The notes below the pieces were generated by a model that worked only from the letters and a program-made list of their open reading frames with translations, was not told the DNA's origin and searched no databases. A DNA stretch of 64,000 bases from an uncultured Alphaproteobacteria bacterium (GTDB lineage Bacteria; Pseudomonadota; Alphaproteobacteria; RF32; CAG-239), in contig CASZWJ010000008.1 of assembly GCA_949493535.1 (NCBI GenBank), forward strand, positions 345-64,344. Direction: 5' to 3'. Every line of letters starts with the position of its first letter. The first letter of the stretch is position 1. Below are positions 4,801 to 23,456 of this stretch, piece after piece. The translations under genes and the position numbers were made by a program.

Positions 4801-6561
4801 ATGGGAACCATCAGTATTTTTAACCAGACTTCAAACGTGGTCTTTACCCTTTTGTCATTGTTTTTGCTGTTTTGCGCCAGCATATATGCTTCTAAGGGAA
4901 CCAAGCTCGGAAAAGGTATTTGGCTGCTGTATTGGGGATTGGTGTTGGAGTTTGTCACAATATATATCGGCAAACATTCAAGTGATATTTTCAGCCATGG
5001 CGGCGGTATCGAGGGCTGGGTTTTCGTTGAGTTGCTGCTGAACCTGATTTCCATGATTCTTTTGGCAATGGCAGCCTCGCAAATTCTGGTAAACGGTGTT
5101 CCTGATTTGCCTGTTATCGGCGGTTTTGGCGCTTTGGGCCTGGTTGCCATAATTTATTTTCTGTTCATATCTCCTGATGGCGAAATGGTTTCAAACATGC
5201 GCCAGATATTCCCTCTGACGGGGTTTGCCTATATCTCCGTAAGCTTTTTGTCTCAATGGCGCAACAAACATCACGGCGGCTTTGTTTTTGCGGGTATTGT
5301 TTCGCTCTCGGTTGCTTTCGTCATGGTCTTAAAATTGTTCGGCAATGAATATTTTCTGATGTCTGCGTGGTATGTTCCTGCTTGCACATATGTCTTGCTC
5401 AGCATAGCCTTAATTATGATGAAAGGCGATTTTTATGCCAAAAAGCTTGACGAAAGCCAATTGGAAATAGAAAGATATAACAAGCGTATAGAAGAAATTA
5501 TCAAATCGTCGCCTTTCCCGATTATCATTTCCCGTTTGAGCGATGACCGTATCATTTTGGCGAATAACAATGCCATTAAGCTCTTTGGCATTCGTCAGGA
5601 AGAATTGGAACGTTACCGCTTAAAAGATTTCTTCGCCGATTCTGAAAACCGCCGTTTGTTAAATGAGCGGTTGGAACAGGAACGCGAAGTTCAGGATTTT
5701 GAAGTTTTGGTCACAACCCCGAGCAGCAATACGCCTTTCTGGCTTCTGACTTCGGCCAATGTTATCGATTATAACTATGATGTTGCGCTTTATGCCGCTT
5801 TTCAGGATATTACATCGCGCAAAAACCGCGAAGTTTTGTTGAAAAATCAGGCAATCCGCGATCCTCTGACTTCATTGTTTAACCGCCGTTATTTTGAAGA
5901 TGAGGTATATAAGCGCATTTTGGAATCTAAAACGGCAAACGAACCGTTCAGCGTGTTGATGATTGATGCCGACCATTTCAAAAACGTTAACGATACTTAC
6001 GGACACAAAACCGGTGATAAAGTGTTGATTGAGTTGGCTTCGACCTGTGAACGCGCGTTGCGTGACGTTGATATTGTCGCCCGTTACGGCGGTGAAGAAT
6101 TTGTTATCTTTTTAGCCGGCGTCAATGCTCAAAAAGGCAAAACCGTTGCTGACCGCCTGCGCGAGACAATCTCAGAAATTGTTGTTCACTCCGATGAAGG
6201 GGATGAGGTTCGTTTTACGGTCAGTATCGGCGTTTCTTCCAATGAGATTTCCGATAATATAGACACTCTGATTAAAGCTGCGGACGAAGCTTTGTATAAA
6301 GCCAAGGAAACCGGACGCAACCGTGTTGTCGTCTTTAATAAAGAAGATATGGAAGCCTTTGACAACAGGGAAACTCAGGAACGGATAAAAAATGAGGCCA
6401 ATAACCGGCATCCGATTTTTGATAAAGAAGAAAATGAAGAAATTTCGCTGCTGGACGGTATCGAAGCGCAGCATATCCAGAGCGATACGCCGAAAATAGA
6501 AGACGGCGGTTCGGATGAATCCGGCTTGCTGCTTGGCGTTGACGAAGAAGACTTGAAATAG
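4801..6561 (+). CDS. Membrane-bound PAS/GGDEF diguanylate cyclase
   Basis: N-terminal multi-TM domain and a PAS-like segment. GGDEF domain with an active-site RYGGEEF and an RxxD I-site (RDVD) five residues upstream. Acidic C-terminal tail. Confidence 0.85.
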   Translation: MGTISIFNQTSNVVFTLLSLFLLFCASIYASKGTKLGKGIWLLYWGLVLEFVTIYIGKHSSDIFSHGGGIEGWVFVELLLNLISMILLAMAASQILVNGVPDLPVIGGFGALGLVAIIYFLFISPDGEMVSNMRQIFPLTGFAYISVSFLSQWRNKHHGGFVFAGIVSLSVAFVMVLKLFGNEYFLMSAWYVPACTYVLLSIALIMMKGDFYAKKLDESQLEIERYNKRIEEIIKSSPFPIIISRLSDDRIILANNNAIKLFGIRQEELERYRLKDFFADSENRRLLNERLEQEREVQDFEVLVTTPSSNTPFWLLTSANVIDYNYDVALYAAFQDITSRKNREVLLKNQAIRDPLTSLFNRRYFEDEVYKRILESKTANEPFSVLMIDADHFKNVNDTYGHKTGDKVLIELASTCERALRDVDIVARYGGEEFVIFLAGVNAQKGKTVADRLRETISEIVVHSDEGDEVRFTVSIGVSSNEISDNIDTLIKAADEALYKAKETGRNRVVVFNKEDMEAFDNRETQERIKNEANNRHPIFDKEENEEISLLDGIEAQHIQSDTPKIEDGGSDESGLLLGVDEEDLK

Positions 6562-7758: not shown

Positions 7759-8412
7759 ATGATAAAAAAAATATATATCGGTATTTTGGCAGGGCTGCTG
7801 AGCGCTTGCGTTTTGCGCGAGCCTTACCGTTATTGCCCTCTGGTCACAATCGACCGTTATGACGCGCGCCTTATCCAAAAAGTTAATTACCAAGACGATT
7901 TTGAAGTTGAGTTCAAAGGCGTTGAAGGCTTTTGCTGGTATGATGAGCGCGTTAAACAGGAAAAAGCGCGGATTACGCCTGTTTTTGTCGTACGCAAACT
8001 GCGTAATACTGATGAAAGCGACGTTCATTTCCGTTGGTTTACCAATACAATCAAAGGCCCGCCGGCTTATCTTGGCAAAAAGTCATATTTTGCTGAGGTT
8101 TCCATGGCTAAAGGCGAACGCAGCAAAGAATTTCGCGGCGAAGCGGTAGATGTAAAAATCCCGCGCGATATGATGTATGAATTTGAAATTTTTGCAGGGT
8201 TGGTCATCTCGCCGCAGGAACAGAAATATAACCGCCGGATTTTTGATGTCGATTTTGACTATTACGAAGATACAGAGACATCAGAACCTTCTGTCGCCAA
8301 GTTAAAAGTTTATCCCGAGCTTTATTATGAAGACGGCAGCGTTGCCGAACCTGAATATATTACGCCCGGCCGGCCGCAAAAGAAGCAAGGTTGCTCAAGC
8401 TGCGGCGTATAA
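7759..8412 (+). CDS. Lipoprotein, unknown function
   Basis: Signal peptide with lipobox LLSAC; 217-aa ORF. Family not recognised. Confidence 0.55.
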   Translation: MIKKIYIGILAGLLSACVLREPYRYCPLVTIDRYDARLIQKVNYQDDFEVEFKGVEGFCWYDERVKQEKARITPVFVVRKLRNTDESDVHFRWFTNTIKGPPAYLGKKSYFAEVSMAKGERSKEFRGEAVDVKIPRDMMYEFEIFAGLVISPQEQKYNRRIFDVDFDYYEDTETSEPSVAKLKVYPELYYEDGSVAEPEYITPGRPQKKQGCSSCGV

Positions 8413-8446
8413 TTTTTTATTTTTTTAACCTCAAGGAGAAGTATCT

Positions 8447-10426
8447 ATGAGTTTATCCCAGCAAAATTCCCTCGCACAAATGGCAAATGCCATTCGTTTT
8501 TTGAGTGCGGATGCTATTGAAAAATCAAATTCGGGTCATCCGGGCATGCCTTTGGGTATGGCGGATGTGGCAACGGTATTGTTTACGAAATTTATGAAAC
8601 TTGATGCTTCTCAGCCGCATTGGTTTGACCGCGACCGCTTTGTCTTGTCTGCCGGACACGGTTCTATGCTGATGTATTCCCTGCTTTATTTGCTGGGGTA
8701 TAAAGATATTGGCATTGAAGACATTAAGAATTTCCGCCAGTTGGGCGCCAAGACCGCCGGACACCCTGAATACGGGCATCTGGCCGGCATAGATATGACA
8801 ACCGGGCCTTTGGGGCAGGGTATTTCTTCCGCAGTCGGCATGGCTTTGGCCGAACGCGTCATCGCCGCCAAATACGGAGAAGATGTCTGCAATCACTATA
8901 CTTATGTCATTAACGGTGACGGCTGCTTAATGGAAGGCATTTCCGAAGAAGCGATTTCCCTTGCCGGACATTGGGGCTTAAATAAGCTGATTGTTCTTTG
9001 GGATAATAATAATATCACGATTGACGGAACGGTAGACAAGGCCAATTCGACTGACCAGATAGCCCGTTTCAAGGCTGTCGGCTGGAATACGATTGAAATT
9101 GACGGCCACGATTACGGAATGATTGAAAGCGCAATCAAAAAAGCCCAAACGTCAGATAAGCCGACCCTGATTGCCTGCAAAACCAAAATCGGTTTCGGCG
9201 CGCCGAACAAATGCGGCACCAGCAAATGCCACGGTTCTCCGCTCGGTGCCGAAGAAGTTGCGGCAATGCGTCAGGTTCTGGATTGGAAGTCTGAACCCTT
9301 TGATATTCCGTCAGATGTTTTGAAAAACTGGCGTGAAGCCGGTTCCGCCCGTGCCGAAGGCTATAAGGCTTGGTCTGAACGCGCCAAAGCCAAGGGACAA
9401 GAATTTTTAGATTTGATTGAAGGAAAATTGCCCAAAGGCTGGAGTAAAGATTTACAGGCTTTGGCCGAAAAAGCCATTGCCGAAAAAACGAAAGTTGCAA
9501 CCCGCAAAGCCAGCCAGATGTGTTTGGAAGCCATTGTGCCGAATGTGCCGGAAATCATCGGCGGCTCTGCTGACTTGGCAGCCTCAAACTTAACTTTTGT
9601 CAACGGTATGAAAAACATCACAAAAGAAGATTATGCCGGAAATAACGTGATGTATGGTATTCGCGAGCATGCGATGGGCGCAATTATGAACGGTATGGCT
9701 CTGCATGGCGGCGTTATTCCTTATGGCGGCACGTTCTTTGTCTTTTCTGATTATATGCGTCCGTCTATGCGCTTGGCCGCTTTAATGGGCATTCGCGTTA
9801 TTTATGTTTTGACGCATGATTCGATAGGTGTCGGCGAAGACGGCCCGACCCACCAGCCGGTTGAACATTTGGCATCTTATCGCGCCATGCCGAATATTTA
9901 TACGTTCCGCCCCTGCGATGTGGTTGAAACGGCCGAGGCTTGGAAGCTGGCGGTCGAAAGCGAAAAAACGCCGAGCATTTTGGCTCTGACCCGTCAGGGA
10001 TTGCCTTTGCTGCGTGCTTCTGCAAAAGAAAACTTAACCGCTAAGGGAGGCTATGTTATTTCGGATGTTGCCGAGGGCAAAAAGCGGCAGGCAACAATTA
10101 TCGCCACCGGTTCGGAAGTATCTCTGGCTGTGGAAGCCCAGAAACAATTGCGGGAAGAAGGAATTGACGTCGCGGTTGTTTCCATGCCCTGCACGGAACT
10201 TTTTGACAAGCAGGATATTTCTTATCAGGAAGAAGTTTTAGGCTCTGCGCCGCGTATTGCTGTTGAAGCTGCTTCGAAATTCGGCTGGGAAAAATATGTC
10301 GGCTTAAAAGGCGATATTATCGGCATGGACGGCTTTGGTGCGTCCGGTCCGGCTGAGGAATTGTATAAATACTTCGGCATCACTAAAGAAGAAGTTGTTG
10401 ACGCTGTTAAAAACTGCATGAAATAA
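8447..10426 (+). CDS. tkt: Transketolase
   Basis: SGHPGMPLGMADVA and GDGCLMEGIS ThDP motifs, full length at 659 aa, with a GGAG RBS upstream. Confidence 0.95.
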   Translation: MSLSQQNSLAQMANAIRFLSADAIEKSNSGHPGMPLGMADVATVLFTKFMKLDASQPHWFDRDRFVLSAGHGSMLMYSLLYLLGYKDIGIEDIKNFRQLGAKTAGHPEYGHLAGIDMTTGPLGQGISSAVGMALAERVIAAKYGEDVCNHYTYVINGDGCLMEGISEEAISLAGHWGLNKLIVLWDNNNITIDGTVDKANSTDQIARFKAVGWNTIEIDGHDYGMIESAIKKAQTSDKPTLIACKTKIGFGAPNKCGTSKCHGSPLGAEEVAAMRQVLDWKSEPFDIPSDVLKNWREAGSARAEGYKAWSERAKAKGQEFLDLIEGKLPKGWSKDLQALAEKAIAEKTKVATRKASQMCLEAIVPNVPEIIGGSADLAASNLTFVNGMKNITKEDYAGNNVMYGIREHAMGAIMNGMALHGGVIPYGGTFFVFSDYMRPSMRLAALMGIRVIYVLTHDSIGVGEDGPTHQPVEHLASYRAMPNIYTFRPCDVVETAEAWKLAVESEKTPSILALTRQGLPLLRASAKENLTAKGGYVISDVAEGKKRQATIIATGSEVSLAVEAQKQLREEGIDVAVVSMPCTELFDKQDISYQEEVLGSAPRIAVEAASKFGWEKYVGLKGDIIGMDGFGASGPAEELYKYFGITKEEVVDAVKNCMK

Positions 10427-18927: not shown

Positions 18928-19890
18928 ATGGAAATTTGCGAAAATAAATCAATCAAAGAAGTTGTCGGTTCTTTTGCCGAAGAAAATTCTCAGGAAGGCT
19001 TGCGCGTTTTTGTTGCCGGCGGTTCTCGTGCCGGTATGGACGATGTTTATGTTGATGAAGCTTATAATCTGGGGCGCCAAATTGCCAGAATGGATTTCAA
19101 ACTTGATTTCGGCTTGTCCAGTTCCGGCATTATGGGGGCTGTTGCCCGTGGTGTGCTTGACGGCTGGAATAAGAAAAAATGCAAAACAACGCCGATTCAG
19201 GGAATCACGACCAAAGAGTATTACAGTCTGTATCAAACCGATGAAATTTTAGGACAGATAGAAGATGTGATTGTTGCCCAAACTTTGGAAGAACGCAAAA
19301 AGAAGTTGCTGAATGCGGATTTTGTGGTCTTTGCGCCGGGCGGTGTTGGTACTCTGGATGAATTAGCCTATGACTGTGTTGCTATGCAGGACGGTTTGCT
19401 GCCGATAAAACCGTTTATTCTCTATAATGTCGATTCGTTCTTTCATCATATGGTTGAATATTTGAAAGAGATTTCGGCAAAAGGCTTTGCTGATCCTGTG
19501 CCTTTTATTATCGTTGATAACAGCGATGAATTAAGCATTGTGTTTCGTTTGCTCAAATTGCGTTATAAAAAAGGCAAAACAACGGCGGAAGTTTATGCCG
19601 CAACTCGTCAGCTGATTTATGAATTGCCGTATTTCATTAAAAAGAAACCTGATTCGTCTGTGCATGTCGAAGATATTATTGCCGATATGCAAAACACCAG
19701 CTTGTATGGAACGGCGGAAGAGCGTCAGGAATTGGCAAATGAGATAGAACTGGCTTATCTGGAAAAAGAAATTGAACGGATGTATGATCGCTTATCAAAA
19801 ACCGGTCGCGATACGTCTATCGTCAGCGATAAATTGGCGAATTTGAAAAAACGCAAAAAAGAAAATGCCAAGAATAAAAGAGAAAAATAA
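18928..19890 (+). CDS. LOG-family (TIGR00730-like) nucleotide phosphoribohydrolase homologue with a long charged C-terminal extension
   Basis: PGGVGTLDEL signature in a Rossmann-like core, followed by a ~100-aa coiled/charged tail. Starts 8 nt after the tgt stop. Confidence 0.65.
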   Translation: MEICENKSIKEVVGSFAEENSQEGLRVFVAGGSRAGMDDVYVDEAYNLGRQIARMDFKLDFGLSSSGIMGAVARGVLDGWNKKKCKTTPIQGITTKEYYSLYQTDEILGQIEDVIVAQTLEERKKKLLNADFVVFAPGGVGTLDELAYDCVAMQDGLLPIKPFILYNVDSFFHHMVEYLKEISAKGFADPVPFIIVDNSDELSIVFRLLKLRYKKGKTTAEVYAATRQLIYELPYFIKKKPDSSVHVEDIIADMQNTSLYGTAEERQELANEIELAYLEKEIERMYDRLSKTGRDTSIVSDKLANLKKRKKENAKNKREK

Positions 19891-19918
19891 AGAAAGCCGC
19901 AAATCAGCGGCTTTCTTT
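19889..19918 (+). terminator. Rho-independent terminator after the LOG gene
   Basis: AAAGAAAGCCGC-aaatca-GCGGCTTTCTTT. Confidence 0.8.
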
Positions 19919-20067
19919 ATTGAATCAATTTAAGAATCTTATTTTTTTGTCTATAGTCTTGCGTTTGAAAATATTGGAATGCGTTGGAAATATGAGGTTT
20001 TGATGCAATCTAAACCAATGATTTTTCGATAAAATTCAAAAAAATGACAAAATATCGAAATTTTTTG

Positions 20068-20096
20068 TTGACGGGGTTAAAAACGTATGATATACA
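20068..20096 (+). promoter_or_regulatory. Sigma70-like promoter of the orphan unit
   Basis: TTGACG (20068-20073), a 17-nt spacer, then TATACA (20091-20096), with an A/T-rich UP-like tract upstream. Confidence 0.45.
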
Positions 20097-20211
20097 TACT
20101 GGCATAAACGAATTAAAATGACTAAGCATTATGAATAAATCACCTCCTGTTATTGTTTCGACTTCGACACGCAACCAGTAGATTTCCCGACATTTAAGAC
20201 GAAGAAACCCC

Positions 20212-20244
20212 ATGCATCGAATTAGAGACGAAACCAGTTCATAA
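20212..20244 (+). CDS. Candidate micro-ORF 1, MHRIRDETSS
   Basis: ATG CAT CGA ATT AGA GAC GAA ACC AGT TCA TAA. Shares the xRIRDET block with two downstream ORFs. Only a purine-rich tract (GAAGAAA) lies upstream as a weak RBS. Confidence 0.3.
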   Translation: MHRIRDETSS

Positions 20245-20304
20245 AAAAGCAGAAAAATCGAATGTCAGACTTCTGAATTAAGCCGCGATGGCACCTGAAC
20301 ACGT

Positions 20305-20340
20305 ATGAACCGGATAAGAGACGAAACTGATACAGTTTGA
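20305..20340 (+). CDS. Candidate micro-ORF 2, MNRIRDETDTV
   Basis: ATG AAC CGG ATA AGA GAC GAA ACT GAT ACA GTT TGA. Same frame modulo 3 as ORF 1 and ORF 3. No clear SD. Confidence 0.3.
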   Translation: MNRIRDETDTV

Positions 20341-20370
20341 GAGAGTTACTAACCTAAAATGTTAAACCGC

Positions 20371-20421
20371 GTGAACCGTATCAGAGATGAGACTCAGCCT
20401 GCAGTTTTTTGTAAATATTAA
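20371..20421 (+). CDS. Candidate micro-ORF 3, (M)NRIRDETQPAVFCKY
   Basis: GTG AAC CGT ATC AGA GAT GAG ACT ... TAA. An in-frame ATG at 20359 would add MLNR. No clear SD. Confidence 0.3.
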   Translation: MNRIRDETQPAVFCKY

Positions 20422-20531
20422 AACCGCAAGCAATGATAAGAGCCTCCCCGAAACAATAAAATAAGGAAGTCAAAAAAATTCCAGGTAGAAGCACCGCCCA
20501 CGGTTTCGGCACTGCCCCTGCAAAATTTTTT

Positions 20532-20563
20532 ATCCCTCGACTTTTCGAGGGATTTTTTATTTT
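20532..20563 (+). terminator. Rho-independent terminator ending the orphan unit
   Basis: ATCCCTCGA-cttt-TCGAGGGAT followed by TTTTTTATTTT. The U-tract is good only on the + strand. Confidence 0.85.
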
Positions 20564-20566
20564 AAA

Positions 20567-21541
20567 TTAAAAACCCGTGCGCTGGTTGAGTTTGAGTTGT
20601 TCAATAATTGCCATAACCGAAAGGAACTGTTCAAAGGTTTCGTCAATCAATTTGCGGTCGGTTGTTTTTCGGAACAAAGACGTACTTTCAAACATGTTTT
20701 TTTTGCAGTCAATGGCAATTAAAAGCTTATTGTCAAAAAAACTGAACTGAATTTTATTGCTCCTATAAGCTTTGCGCACTTTAAGCATGCGTTCCATAAA
20801 AGCCGTTGTTAAAAGAAAGCGCGCTTCCAACTGATCGTTTGAAAAAACTTCAAATTCTTTTTCAAATAAGCTGTCTTCCAATGCCACTTTTTGTAAACCT
20901 TTAATTTTGTTAAAAGCGTTAAAAATGCCTTTATCTTTTAAAACAACGGTTTTTCCGGCAAAGTTTTTGTTCATTTCCAGAAGGATTAAAATGCCGTTGA
21001 AAACCTTTTGAATAGAGACGCCTTTTTCATGCTGCTCGGCAAATTGCAGTTTTTCTTCTGAAATAACCATTCCCACTTCTTGAAAACAGCCGCAGAAATA
21101 ATCATCTCCCAGATGAGTGTTGTATTCGTCAAACAATAAAGATTTTCTAATTGTATCATCATCAATGCAATTCATGAAAGCATATTCGAAATCGCCGAAA
21201 TATTTTATAAATTCGGGCATAACCCGATTTTTGGCTTTGCGTTTATAAAAAAACACCGGCGAGGAAACAATGGCAATCAGCACCAGTAGCGCGAAAAAAA
21301 TTGTTCCGAGCGGCAAGTCGCCGTGATAATGGTATTCTCCATTGTTTTGTTGAAGGAAAAGCCAAAACAGTCCGGCACAAATTGCCGGTAAAATCACAAA
21401 GATAATCAGCAGCCCGATGATAAAAAAACGCAGATATTTTTTACGGCTGGCTTCAATGCCTGAAAATTCAGGCTCCAAAACTGTTTGGTAAAAATTTTCA
21501 AATCCGGCTCTGAGCTGGTCTGTATTGCGTTTTTCTGCCAT
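20567..21541 (-). CDS. LemA-associated membrane protein (DUF3137-like, from memory)
   Basis: 324 aa with two N-proximal TM helices and a large soluble domain. Its start codon directly abuts the lemA stop (TAAATG). Confidence 0.5.
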   Translation of the reverse strand: MAEKRNTDQLRAGFENFYQTVLEPEFSGIEASRKKYLRFFIIGLLIIFVILPAICAGLFWLFLQQNNGEYHYHGDLPLGTIFFALLVLIAIVSSPVFFYKRKAKNRVMPEFIKYFGDFEYAFMNCIDDDTIRKSLLFDEYNTHLGDDYFCGCFQEVGMVISEEKLQFAEQHEKGVSIQKVFNGILILLEMNKNFAGKTVVLKDKGIFNAFNKIKGLQKVALEDSLFEKEFEVFSNDQLEARFLLTTAFMERMLKVRKAYRSNKIQFSFFDNKLLIAIDCKKNMFESTSLFRKTTDRKLIDETFEQFLSVMAIIEQLKLNQRTGF

Positions 21542-22120: not shown

Positions 22121-22226
22121 TTTTCTGCTCCTTAAATGTTTTTCTTTAATGATAGGGATGATTCATTAATATTTATTAAAAGTATCTTCATTATTGCTTC
22201 GTAAAATGGTTGCAAAGGAGAAAAGC

Positions 22227-23456
22227 ATGCTGAACATAATCTGGGTTTTATTTTTTATAGCCGCCTTTGTTGCTGCGATTTTTAAAAGCTTTTTTATGGG
22301 AGAAAGCGGTGTTTGGACAGAGCTCGTTGCGGCAACCTTTTCTTCATCAAAAAACGCGTTTACGATTTCTCTAAATCTGACCGGAATTTTGTGTTTGTGG
22401 CTGGGGCTTTTGAAAATTGCCGAACAATCGGGAATAACCAATCTGCTTTCAAAAGCTTTGGCGCCGCTGTTTCGCAAAATAATGCCGGAAGTGCCGCAAG
22501 GGCATCCGGCAATGGGATCAATCATTATGAATATGGCTGCAAATGTGCTGGGGCTGGATAACGCGGCCACGCCTATGGGATTGAAAGCTATGGAGCAATT
22601 GCAGGAACTGAACCCTAAAAAAGATACGGCGTCAAACGCCCAGATTTTGTTTATGGTCTTAAATGCGTCGGCCATAACTTTGATTCCGATAACGATTTTG
22701 ATGTACCGCGCAGAATTAGGATCCGCAAATCCGGCTGCGGTTTTTATGCCGATTCTTTTTGCCACGTCAGTTTCAACGTTGGTTGGTTTTTTGTCCGTTG
22801 CCTGGGTGCAAAAACTAAATATTTTCAATCGTGTCATTTTGGCATATCTGGCTGCATTTGCCGCCTTTATTTTCCTGACCGGCTGGTATTTTAATTCTCT
22901 GCCGGCAGAAACAAGGTTAGCCGTTTCGGCAGAATGGGGCAACGGAATTTTGTTTTCGGTCATCGTAACGTTTATTGCCGCCGGATTAATTAAAAAGCTA
23001 AATGTGTATGATGTTTTTATTCAAGGAGCTAAAGAAGGTTTTGAGATTGCCGTGCGGATTATTCCTTATCTGGTTGCCATGCTGGTTGCCATTGCTGTCT
23101 TGCGCAGTTCGGGCGTGCTTGACTTGATCGTCTTGGGCTTTGGCAAAATTTTTGCTCTGATCGGGATTGATACGGCTTTTGTGGCGGCTCTTCCGACTGC
23201 TTTGTTGAAACCTTTATCCGGCAGCGGCGCAAGGGCGATGATGATTGAAACCATGCAGACTTACGGGGCAGACAGTTTTCCTGCTTTCGTTTCCTGTATC
23301 GTCCAAGGTTCGACCGAAACAACATTTTATGTTTTGGCGGTTTATTTCGGTGCGGTAAAAATAACCAAAGTCCGTTCGGCGTTGCCTTGTGCACTTCTCG
23401 CTGATTTTGCAGGAATTGTCGCGGCTGTCTTTTTTGCTTATCGTTTTTATAATTAA
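22227..23456 (+). CDS. Nucleoside-recognition (Gate) domain membrane protein, fused SpmA/SpmB-like
   Basis: Start MLNIIWVLFF after an AAGGAG RBS. Polytopic, with two Gate-like halves. The antisense ORF 22166-22963 is spurious. Confidence 0.65.
   Translation: MLNIIWVLFFIAAFVAAIFKSFFMGESGVWTELVAATFSSSKNAFTISLNLTGILCLWLGLLKIAEQSGITNLLSKALAPLFRKIMPEVPQGHPAMGSIIMNMAANVLGLDNAATPMGLKAMEQLQELNPKKDTASNAQILFMVLNASAITLIPITILMYRAELGSANPAAVFMPILFATSVSTLVGFLSVAWVQKLNIFNRVILAYLAAFAAFIFLTGWYFNSLPAETRLAVSAEWGNGILFSVIVTFIAAGLIKKLNVYDVFIQGAKEGFEIAVRIIPYLVAMLVAIAVLRSSGVLDLIVLGFGKIFALIGIDTAFVAALPTALLKPLSGSGARAMMIETMQTYGADSFPAFVSCIVQGSTETTFYVLAVYFGAVKITKVRSALPCALLADFAGIVAAVFFAYRFYN

Follow-up and report, generated by a model that had tools for sequence, protein, structure and literature searches.

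The 64,000-nucleotide window analysed here, a stretch of contig CASZWJ010000008.1 from an uncultured alphaproteobacterium, contains between a LOG-family gene and a convergent DUF3137 gene a gap of 676 nt (19891-20566) which, on direct reading, holds a unit of very short open reading frames (micro-ORFs). The unit extends over ~460 nt of the plus strand, from promoter to terminator (20103-20563), and looks like a member of an undescribed family of tandem 'R-x-R-D' micro-ORF arrays that are also present in phages. Our preferred reading, to which we give an about even chance, is an independent transcription unit with a regulated promoter, which carries a translated micro-ORF array and acts as a minigene- or arrest-like, translation-dependent RNA.

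A 24-nt block occurs in three copies inside the unit (ATGCATCGAATTAGAGACGAAACC at 20212, ATGAACCGGATAAGAGACGAAACT at 20305 and GTGAACCGTATCAGAGATGAGACT at 20371), and an independent repeat search recovered the same block family (D1). The exact core AGAGAYGARAC is restricted to these three sites in the window, and no clusters of it are found in 0.9 Mb of related genomes. Each block opens one micro-ORF (ORF1 to ORF3, Table 1); these three are paralogues that start with M/V-[H/N]-R-I-R-D-[E/Q]-[T/P] and run on into unconstrained tails. The initial annotation of this stretch had described the three blocks, the promoter and the terminator, all of which were found in place by direct reading, terminator scan and repeat search. 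It had missed two further conserved micro-ORFs, ORF0 and ORF4, and the two CU-rich tracts it had interpreted as potential seeds of a small RNA (sRNA) are codons of exactly these two ORFs, one tract being broken by a synonymous change (TCC>TCA) in the orthologous locus L211. Likewise, its statement that no plus-strand ORF exceeds 20 codons does not hold: one of 25 aa is located at 20387-20464; it is not conserved, its ATG being lost in L211.

The bacterial micro-ORFs comprise 8-16 codons, with a weak or absent Shine-Dalgarno (SD) motif. All copies, whether from the bacterium or from phages, contain a basic-x-basic motif (R-I-R or R-A-R). The bacterial copies use AGA at codon 5 throughout; AGA amounts to 13% and CGA to 4% of the Arg codons in the window genes. 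SD motifs precede 23 of the 42 long ORFs of this genome. The initial annotation had noted their lack in the micro-ORFs as a concern, which stands for the bacterial copy and not for the phage copies, all of which possess one. The bacterial copy may be expressed by coupling or re-initiation, or may be translated weakly on purpose.

Orthologues of the unit were retrieved with the adjacent DUF3137 protein as handle, by taking the contigs that encode its closest relatives, and 11 distinct variants were recovered from related gut metagenome-assembled genomes, including the well-diverged L211. When the window is compared with L205 or L211, four-fold-degenerate sites of the flanking DUF3137 and LemA genes show 60-71% identity. 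Identity of the blocks is 83-100% (20-23 of 24 nt in L211), in contrast to 43-74% for the inter-block spacers in L211. Because the blocks lie far above neutral identity and the spacers at or below it, the blocks form islands under purifying selection. The conserved ORF parts contain 20 changes in 141 sites among the 11 variants; 15 of these are third-position changes (P=4e-5) and 14 are located in codons that stay synonymous (P=5e-6), compared with simulated random placement, both P values being indicative since the segments were picked after inspection. With paralogues and orthologues pooled, the 4-fold Arg site takes all four bases, the Ile site T, A and C only, and the 2-fold sites differ by transitions only. 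Stop codons common to lineages predate the divergence of these lineages.

Changes in the individual ORFs follow the same code. ORF0 displays the synonymous changes TCG>TCA, GTT>GTC, ATT>ATC and AAC>AAT, the in-frame loss of one codon, and stop changes TAG>TAA or CAG>TAG; in L216 and L217 its start lies exactly one codon away, still in frame (ATT ATG AAT > ATG AAA AAT). A replacement, T>N, occurs in L211. The ORF1 block is identical at 23 of 24 positions in L211, compared with 43% for the next spacer, and its sole change (CAT>CAC) is synonymous; the tail reads TTQT before the stop in L211. ORF2 has the synonymous changes GAC>GAT, CGG>CGC, ATA>ATT and ACA>ACT/ACC, a stop change TGA>TAA, and the replacements E>Q (L211) and T>P (L215, L217). 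In ORF3, the two-base change CGT>AGA keeps Arg in L215 and L217, and L211 has GAT>GAC; an ATG further upstream, at 20359, is either missing from L211 and L215 or not in frame there, and the tail carries replacements and length changes. ORF4 is identical at 19 of 22 positions in L211, where TCC>TCA is synonymous; a change AAA>TAA shortens the ORF from 8 to 6 codons (MIRASP).

The initial annotation had observed that the complementary frame (V-S-S-L-I) would be equally synonymous. This does not extend to the orthologues: the antisense frame (V-S-S-L-I-R-F) has the same third positions, yet changes that are silent in the plus frame cause I>M, S>W and R>L there. In the plus frames it is thus the amino-acid sequence that is conserved, which supports peptide-level selection, as the initial annotation had predicted for M-[H/N]-R-I-R-D-E-T; the pattern expected of orthologues is found in the 11 variants, and the octapeptide recurs in phages. 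The common frame of the three copies is real in this strain but a coincidence, as block spacings are 93/66 nt in the window, 95/66 in L205 and L215, and 87/64 in L211. Because the same-frame relation is not conserved, the blocks represent separate ORFs and not pieces of one gene.

The phage members were found by scanning 2.9 million viral contigs with back-translated MNRIRDET. Four viral loci match, and three more were obtained with E/Q at residue 7 (pattern ATGAAYMGNATHMGNGAY[G/C]ARAC, seven in total); no locus in the viral-contig scan has H at residue 2. All viral matches are stand-alone micro-ORFs of 8-24 codons (0-16 past the octapeptide), with a purine-rich SD 6-11 nt upstream. Their forms are MNRIRDETKTF (twice, in tandem), MNRIRDET (two lineages), MNRIRDQT and MNRIRDQTN, each followed by a stop, and one form of 24 codons. 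Micro-ORFs with MNRIRD[E/Q]T are present in at least five phage lineages, and in three of them they form tandem, promoter-bounded units. Diverged sister copies adjoin, namely MINNRIRDGP and MSNIRIRDVP in L226 and L228, and MMARARDQP and MNRARDQP in L227, leading to the family consensus M-x(1-3)-R-[I/A]-R-D-x-[T/P]. L222 and L225 differ from each other by synonymous changes only (AAT/AAC, GAT/GAC, ACG/ACC), and phage codon 5 is always AGA or CGA. L222 possesses a promoter matching the consensus at 12 of 12 positions, a 17-codon short ORF (sORF) with R-P-P-P and two micro-ORFs, with the next promoter ~380 nt downstream; L228 combines promoter, three micro-ORFs and terminator within ~500 nt. A scrambled control of equal information content (MTEDRIRN) resulted in three loci, all inside ORFs of 122-216 codons. 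GC content of the phage loci ranges from 31 to 56%, and because of this span the target of the octapeptide would be a universal one. Rfam gives no match on the phage loci, and PHROG annotation of the phage neighbours was uninformative.

Two further features of the phage loci were observed. In L223 (~5750-5925, minus orientation), just downstream of a micro-ORF encoding MNRIRDET, a GC-rich stretch of ~170 nt has ends resembling a tRNA acceptor stem, D-arm and T-arm (GTGCGGTGGCGGAATAGGTAGACGCC ... GAGGTGCAAATCCTCACCCGCAC) and a long insert; it was called neither by ARAGORN nor by Rfam and may be an interrupted tRNA or tRNA-like RNA. In L226 and L228 (~8399-8530), the last codons of two micro-ORFs (…CCT TGA CA) overlap TTGACA hexamers, possible -35 elements; translating such a micro-ORF and starting transcription from such a promoter might hinder each other.

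Hairpins connect the bacterial ORFs with one another. Hairpin A joins the end of ORF1 to the start of ORF2; it appears in the minimum free energy folds, with 8-9 of its 10 pairs formed in 10 variants, and in L211 a shifted 7-bp helix (CAUAAAG/CUUUAUG) again links the ORF1 stop to the ORF2 AUG. Hairpin B, from the ORF2 tail to the ORF3 start region, retains 9-10 of 11 pairs in all 11 variants, its mismatch moving in L215 and L217. According to folds of the window, L211 and L215, the ORF2 start codon has a probability of being unpaired of ~0; the ORF3 start region is mostly paired (mean 0.25-0.31). A protein-binding or otherwise structured RNA, which the initial annotation had kept as a live alternative, is disfavoured by these data, as the pairing partners of the blocks are not conserved and helix A takes another register in L211. 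As to the competing pairings expected of an attenuator, each ORF end pairs with the next start, but no alternative of terminator and antiterminator could be defined, and covariation is thin. Two long-range closing helices (I1, I2) were discarded, their 5'-side changes in L211 being uncompensated. Overall, the minus strand folds better than the plus strand (z -4.9 vs -2.4). A minus-strand RNA or 3' untranslated region (3'UTR), an idea prompted by this better fold, was abandoned on the polarity of promoter and terminator and on the codon evidence, and minus-strand ORFs of 43 and 67 aa were dismissed as not conserved.

Table 1. Features of the micro-ORF unit and its immediate neighbours in the window.
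Feature	Position	Strand	Description
LOG-family gene	end at 19890	+	left neighbour of the gap
Candidate regulator site	20024-20060		inverted repeat TTTCGATA-N21-TATCGAAA, directly 5' of the -35 element
Sigma-70-type promoter	20068-20096	+	-35 TTGACG 20068-20073, 17-nt spacer ending TG (extended -10), -10 TATACA 20091-20096; direct reading
ORF0	20131-20181	+	MNKSPPVIVSTSTRNQ and stop, 16 codons; 'anti-SD' tract CACCUCCU (20141-48) equals codons S-P-P (TCA CCT CCT)
ORF1	20212-20244	+	MHRIRDETSS and stop; block copy 1
Hairpin A	20234-20313	+	ORF1 end CCAGUUCAUA (20234-43, across the stop) with ORF2 start UAUGAACCGG (20304-13); inverted repeat I25
ORF2	20305-20340	+	MNRIRDETDTV and stop; block copy 2
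Hairpin B	20327-20384	+	ORF2 tail CUGAUACAGUU with ORF3 start region AACCGUAUCAG; inverted repeat I17
ORF3	20371-20421	+	VNRIRDETQPAVFCKY and stop; block copy 3, GTG start
ORF4	20433-20459	+	MIRASPKQ and stop; CCUCCCC tract equals codons A-S-P (GCC TCC CCG)
Hairpin T2	20472-20531		CCAGG...CCUG (20481-20520), flanked by an A7 run and a T-run; folds of both strands
Intrinsic terminator T1	20532-20563	+	9-bp stem, 4-nt loop, T-run; hairpin 20532-20553; terminator scan
DUF3137 gene	20567-21541	-	convergent; co-transcribed with LemA

The borders of the unit are conserved as well. Transcription would start near 20103. All variants, L211 included (TGT TATCTA), have retained the -35 element and the TGn motif of the promoter; a simple promoter scan left this promoter unscored, since the scan needs T as the last base of the -10 element and TATACA ends in A. 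Over 20020-20067 every orthologue reaches 92-98% identity; in L211 the 48 nt 5' of the -35 element are 92% identical. The palindrome in this segment occurs once in the window, with 0 matches in shuffled sequences, and a search of the window for a regulon sharing it detected no second site. At the 3' end, the interior of the T1 stem is exchanged for other, still-pairing sequence in L208, L211, and L215 and L217, with the T-run kept. The U-run of T1 is present on the plus strand only, and the compensatory changes include a U-G pair that is functional only on that strand. Only 3 nt separate T1 from the stop codon at which the convergent DUF3137 gene ends; this arrangement is the same in the window and all orthologues, and no regulated gene follows the unit on the plus strand in any of these, as a leader-peptide attenuator would have. 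The stem of T2 is kept in all variants, with changes confined to the loop, and its G-U pairs favour the minus strand; T2 is probably a terminator for both directions, shared with the convergent DUF3137-LemA operon. If this operon ends at T2, its transcript and the micro-ORF transcript would overlap by ~90 nt at their 3' ends (20476-20563), mutually antisense. The terminator hairpin that the initial annotation had assigned to the LOG gene exists but is not exclusive to the plus strand; it is bidirectional, and the scan scored the minus strand.

The neighbours of the unit encode LOG, TGT, DUF3137 and LemA; no processing, export or modifying gene is nearby. Further along, at 22166-22963 of the minus strand, a 265-aa ORF is located almost completely inside the gene of a 420-aa Gate-domain transporter (22194-23456, plus strand) and is presumably spurious. 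A search with the LOG protein resulted in 80 syntenic loci, all from metagenome-assembled genomes of uncultured gut, rumen and faecal Alphaproteobacteria (e.g. 'Proteobacteria bacterium CAG:495' and Candidatus Scatocola), and in these 80 loci from other species both element and motif are absent. The junction of LOG and DUF3137 (window 19891-20566; L001-L080, L212, L213) is hypervariable and contains a 585-aa ABC exporter, a methyltransferase-like ORF, lipoprotein-like or other ORFs, or nothing; the LemA-DUF3137 pair itself is missing in many of those related species. The ABC exporter gene occupies the same site in the same orientation. Loci with a DUF3137 identity of at least 85% possess the micro-ORF element, those with at most 80% the ABC exporter instead.

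Conservation changes sharply at ~20020, with ~30% strain divergence (~57-77% identity) to the left and near identity to the right. This mosaic edge (~19880-20020) was observed in L082/L083, L209 and L219, where DUF3137 and the unit are identical, yet the 3' end of LOG, its terminator and the next ~130 nt diverge by ~30%, which suggests recombination with a breakpoint just 5' of the promoter region. The 18 nt before ORF0 (20112-20129) are almost completely replaced in L205 and L215, nearly unchanged in the more divergent L211, and present in a third version in L216 and L217; the 5' leader appears to be exchanged as a cassette. In L204 and L208, assemblies of sister lineages, the contig breaks off within the element or at its margin, 18 and 86 nt after the DUF3137 stop, which may reflect strain heterogeneity or repeats. 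A blastn search against plasmid and phage records gave no match. The matches listed from a metagenome scan with a two-motif pattern were mostly due to chance or to unrelated repeats and did not include the element itself; two of them, L132 and L151, are true phage arrays on later inspection. GC content of the 2-kb segment with the unit is 38%, compared with 43-44% in the neighbouring ones. Because only a narrow clade possesses the unit, its site is an insertion hot spot, promoter and terminators are its own and its GC is low, we infer a moron-like acquisition from phage.

Eight constrained codons followed by free tails, the basic-x-basic motif, AGA or CGA at codon 5 and a polyproline sORF ahead of the array in two lineages point to the ribosome as the target. 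According to our preferred reading, translation of the first eight codons would matter rather than a stable product: basic-x-basic, then Asp and a minor, A-ending Arg codon at position 5, would cause a ribosome to pause, to arrest or to drop its peptidyl-tRNA early. Ribosome occupancy on one ORF would open the hairpin that masks the next start codon, so that the ORFs are coupled in a cascade. The output might be a read-out or modulation of translation status through sequestration of ribosomes or tRNA-Arg; alternatively, the RNA might control its own fate and the overlap of its 3' end with the convergent transcript of DUF3137-LemA. Early AGA codons and minigenes of 3-8 codons are known to lead to accumulation of peptidyl-tRNA and to tRNA sequestration (PMC2490762), and Arg/Lys-X-Arg/Lys is a tunnel-dependent arrest motif (PMC8298421, PMC12583479).

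Several observations weigh against this reading. Transcription and translation of the unit are both predictions from sequence. The bacterial ORFs lack an SD, which about half of the genes of this genome possess. Residues D-E/Q-T/P after R-x-R are conserved too, and neither a pure +X+ (Arg/Lys-X-Arg/Lys) mechanism nor a rare-codon mechanism needs them. The bacterial ORFs extend 2-8 codons past the octapeptide, so an effect linked to termination is not general, and a regulated gene downstream of the unit is missing. ORF0 in L081 tolerates R>H as well as the change of its stop to Trp (stop loss). The hairpins are mostly invariant, covariation is thin, and the covariation term of RNAalifold is slightly unfavourable. 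Finally, the number of viral loci per pattern is near the ~2.6 matches estimated by chance (a rough estimate with an assumed collection size), and the control likewise gave three. Because the count is near chance, the evidence for the family is the character of the matches, which are stand-alone, SD-led and tandem.

The main rival, which we regard as rather unlikely, is that of free trans-acting micropeptides, in which the octapeptide fMet-N-R-I-R-D-E-T would be a 'warhead' binding a conserved cell target and the copies would raise the dose. It agrees with selection at the amino-acid level and with conservation across phages of very different GC, it accounts for D-E/Q-T/P, unneeded for a purely ribosomal R-x-R effect, and several phage ORFs stop exactly after residue 8 or 9, as a minimal product would. 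However, it leaves the invariant minor Arg codon 5 and the ORF-to-ORF hairpins unexplained, no gene for processing, export or modification is nearby, and ligands of only 8-11 residues, their tails of 0-16 residues being free, would be unusual and are expected to be short-lived in the cytosol. The +X+ motif in every bacterial and phage copy, on the other hand, is what a sensor of macrolides, ketolides or other exit-tunnel ligands would need, in which arrest on a micro-ORF remodels the RNA; the short leader peptides of mef/msr and erm work in this manner (PMC4335068, PMC8298421, PMC12583479), the gut habitat contains such drugs, and related species carry an ABC exporter at the same site. But neither a resistance gene nor any plus-strand gene is located downstream, the leader of the ABC transporter in the neighbouring species shows no similarity, phages have no obvious gain from macrolide sensing, and D-x-T/P is unneeded for +X+ arrest; we consider this sensor distinctly unlikely.

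Very unlikely, in our assessment, is a non-coding RNA in which the blocks are a protein-binding or base-pairing motif (a sponge or seed sRNA, maybe the minus-strand 3'UTR of DUF3137) and the codon pattern is coincidental. The better fold of the minus strand, the position of the blocks between hairpins, the CU-rich tracts, the lack of an SD in the bacterial copy and the retention of the core AGAGAY despite synonymous options (codon 5 AGA or CGA) speak for it. Yet the degeneracy fits the plus-frame code, with CGT>AGA and an in-frame shift of a start as examples, while the minus frame takes replacements; a CU tract is broken by a synonymous change; promoter and T-run terminator are on the plus strand; and phage copies keep SD and peptide while their nucleotides vary. 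In agreement with the initial annotation, Rfam 15 (including tmRNA, 6S and alphaproteobacterial sRNAs) contains nothing that matches the unit at gathering thresholds, the only hit in the window being a tRNA-Ile elsewhere, with sub-threshold terminator-type noise at an E-value setting; ARAGORN found no relevant tRNA or tmRNA. The repeat motif lacks the GGA of a CsrB/RsmZ-type sponge and lies partly in stems and linkers. A gene starting with MNRIRDET, for which the unit could be a sponge or mimic, was not found in a search confined to the window and the related loci, a minor part of the genome; the peptide resembles the N-termini of XRE-family proteins (MNRIRELR...). A decaying remnant, finally, be it an internally repetitive pseudogene, a degraded CRISPR-like array or a type I toxin locus based on the 43-aa ORF of the minus strand, is hardly credible to us: the hypervariable insertion hot spot, the imperfect, irregularly spaced repeats and the 43-aa hydrophobic ORF called by one pipeline would fit, but the blocks are far above the neutral rate and the shared stops are older than the split between the lineages. 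As to the 43-aa ORF, every change that it shows in L205 is a replacement, it carries a frameshift in L211, and a search of 5.8 billion proteins gave no further homologue. The copies differ mutually, being 70-83% alike with codon-patterned variation, and their spacings of 59, 93 and 66 nt are uneven, unlike those of a CRISPR array; cas genes were not searched for.

Among known systems, the unit resembles toxic minigenes, whose known effect is an early release of peptidyl-tRNA together with sequestration of a specific tRNA (PMC2490762). It shares with lambda bar and the AGA/AGG 'hungry codons' the few-codon ORFs in phages, the strong promoters and a minor Arg codon within the first five. The phage copies are very short ORFs with a start signal, 8-11 codons behind an SD, and in the bacterial copies this SD is weak or absent. 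For peptidyl-tRNA drop-off and Pth-dependent toxicity, the sole hint at the level of sequence is the invariant minor Arg codon 5. In contrast, bar minigenes comprise 2 codons and no conserved peptide, unlike the conserved octapeptide, the tandem arrays and the bacterial copies without SD found here. The drug-sensing leaders of erm, mef/msr, cat and cml are alike in their constrained first 5-9 codons, free tails, R-x-R and hairpins that tie the sORF to sequence downstream (PMC8298421, PMC4335068, PMC12583479), and Arg/Lys-X-Arg/Lys falls within the first ~8 codons here as well. They differ from the present arrays, which have no regulated gene or resistance determinant downstream, consist of three to five serial ORFs, occur in phages and conserve residues past R-x-R.

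Proline leader ORFs of the mgtL/mgtP type sense translation capacity, and short acidic nascent chains destabilise ribosomes intrinsically. We presume a likeness to these, in that S-P-P of ORF0 and R-P-P-P of the first sORF in L222 and L225 precede the array and the micro-ORFs have early acidic residues. Unlike in the mgtL/mgtP type, no downstream gene is controlled, and the polyproline sORF is absent from the arrays of L226-L228. With the alphaproteobacterial AbcR and 'cuckoo' CCUCCUCCC sRNAs the unit has in common an orphan stretch from promoter to terminator and CU-rich tracts; in contrast to them it has no Rfam match, is ~460 nt long versus ~100-150 nt, and its CU tracts are codons, one of them broken synonymously. 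We know of no conserved octapeptide ORF in tandem arrays without a downstream gene that is common to phages and a bacterium, and a literature search for the peptide string, which the initial annotation had believed undescribed, gave one irrelevant match.

ORFs of 8-16 codons escape gene callers and are usually dismissed, and the comparative evidence for amino-acid-level selection is unusually clean in the present case. 'Synonymous-only' variation between repeat copies can reveal translated micro-ORFs and offers a simple pattern for a census of them. The octapeptide connects a bacterial orphan transcript with tandem phage arrays of very different base composition. We propose tentatively, as a possibility with more against it than for it, that M-N-R-I-R-D-[E/Q]-[T/P] constitutes a universal ribosome-directed octapeptide minigene, with which phages of several phyla and at least one gut bacterium pause or trap ribosomes and tRNA-Arg, tuning or sensing host translation. 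If true, these ORFs would be among the shortest conserved ones known, and they would represent a new class of translation modulators acting without a protein product. Should the peptide act on the ribosome, the arrays would be a compact, transferable module for pausing or drop-off in early elongation and possibly a new route by which phages manipulate the translation of their hosts.

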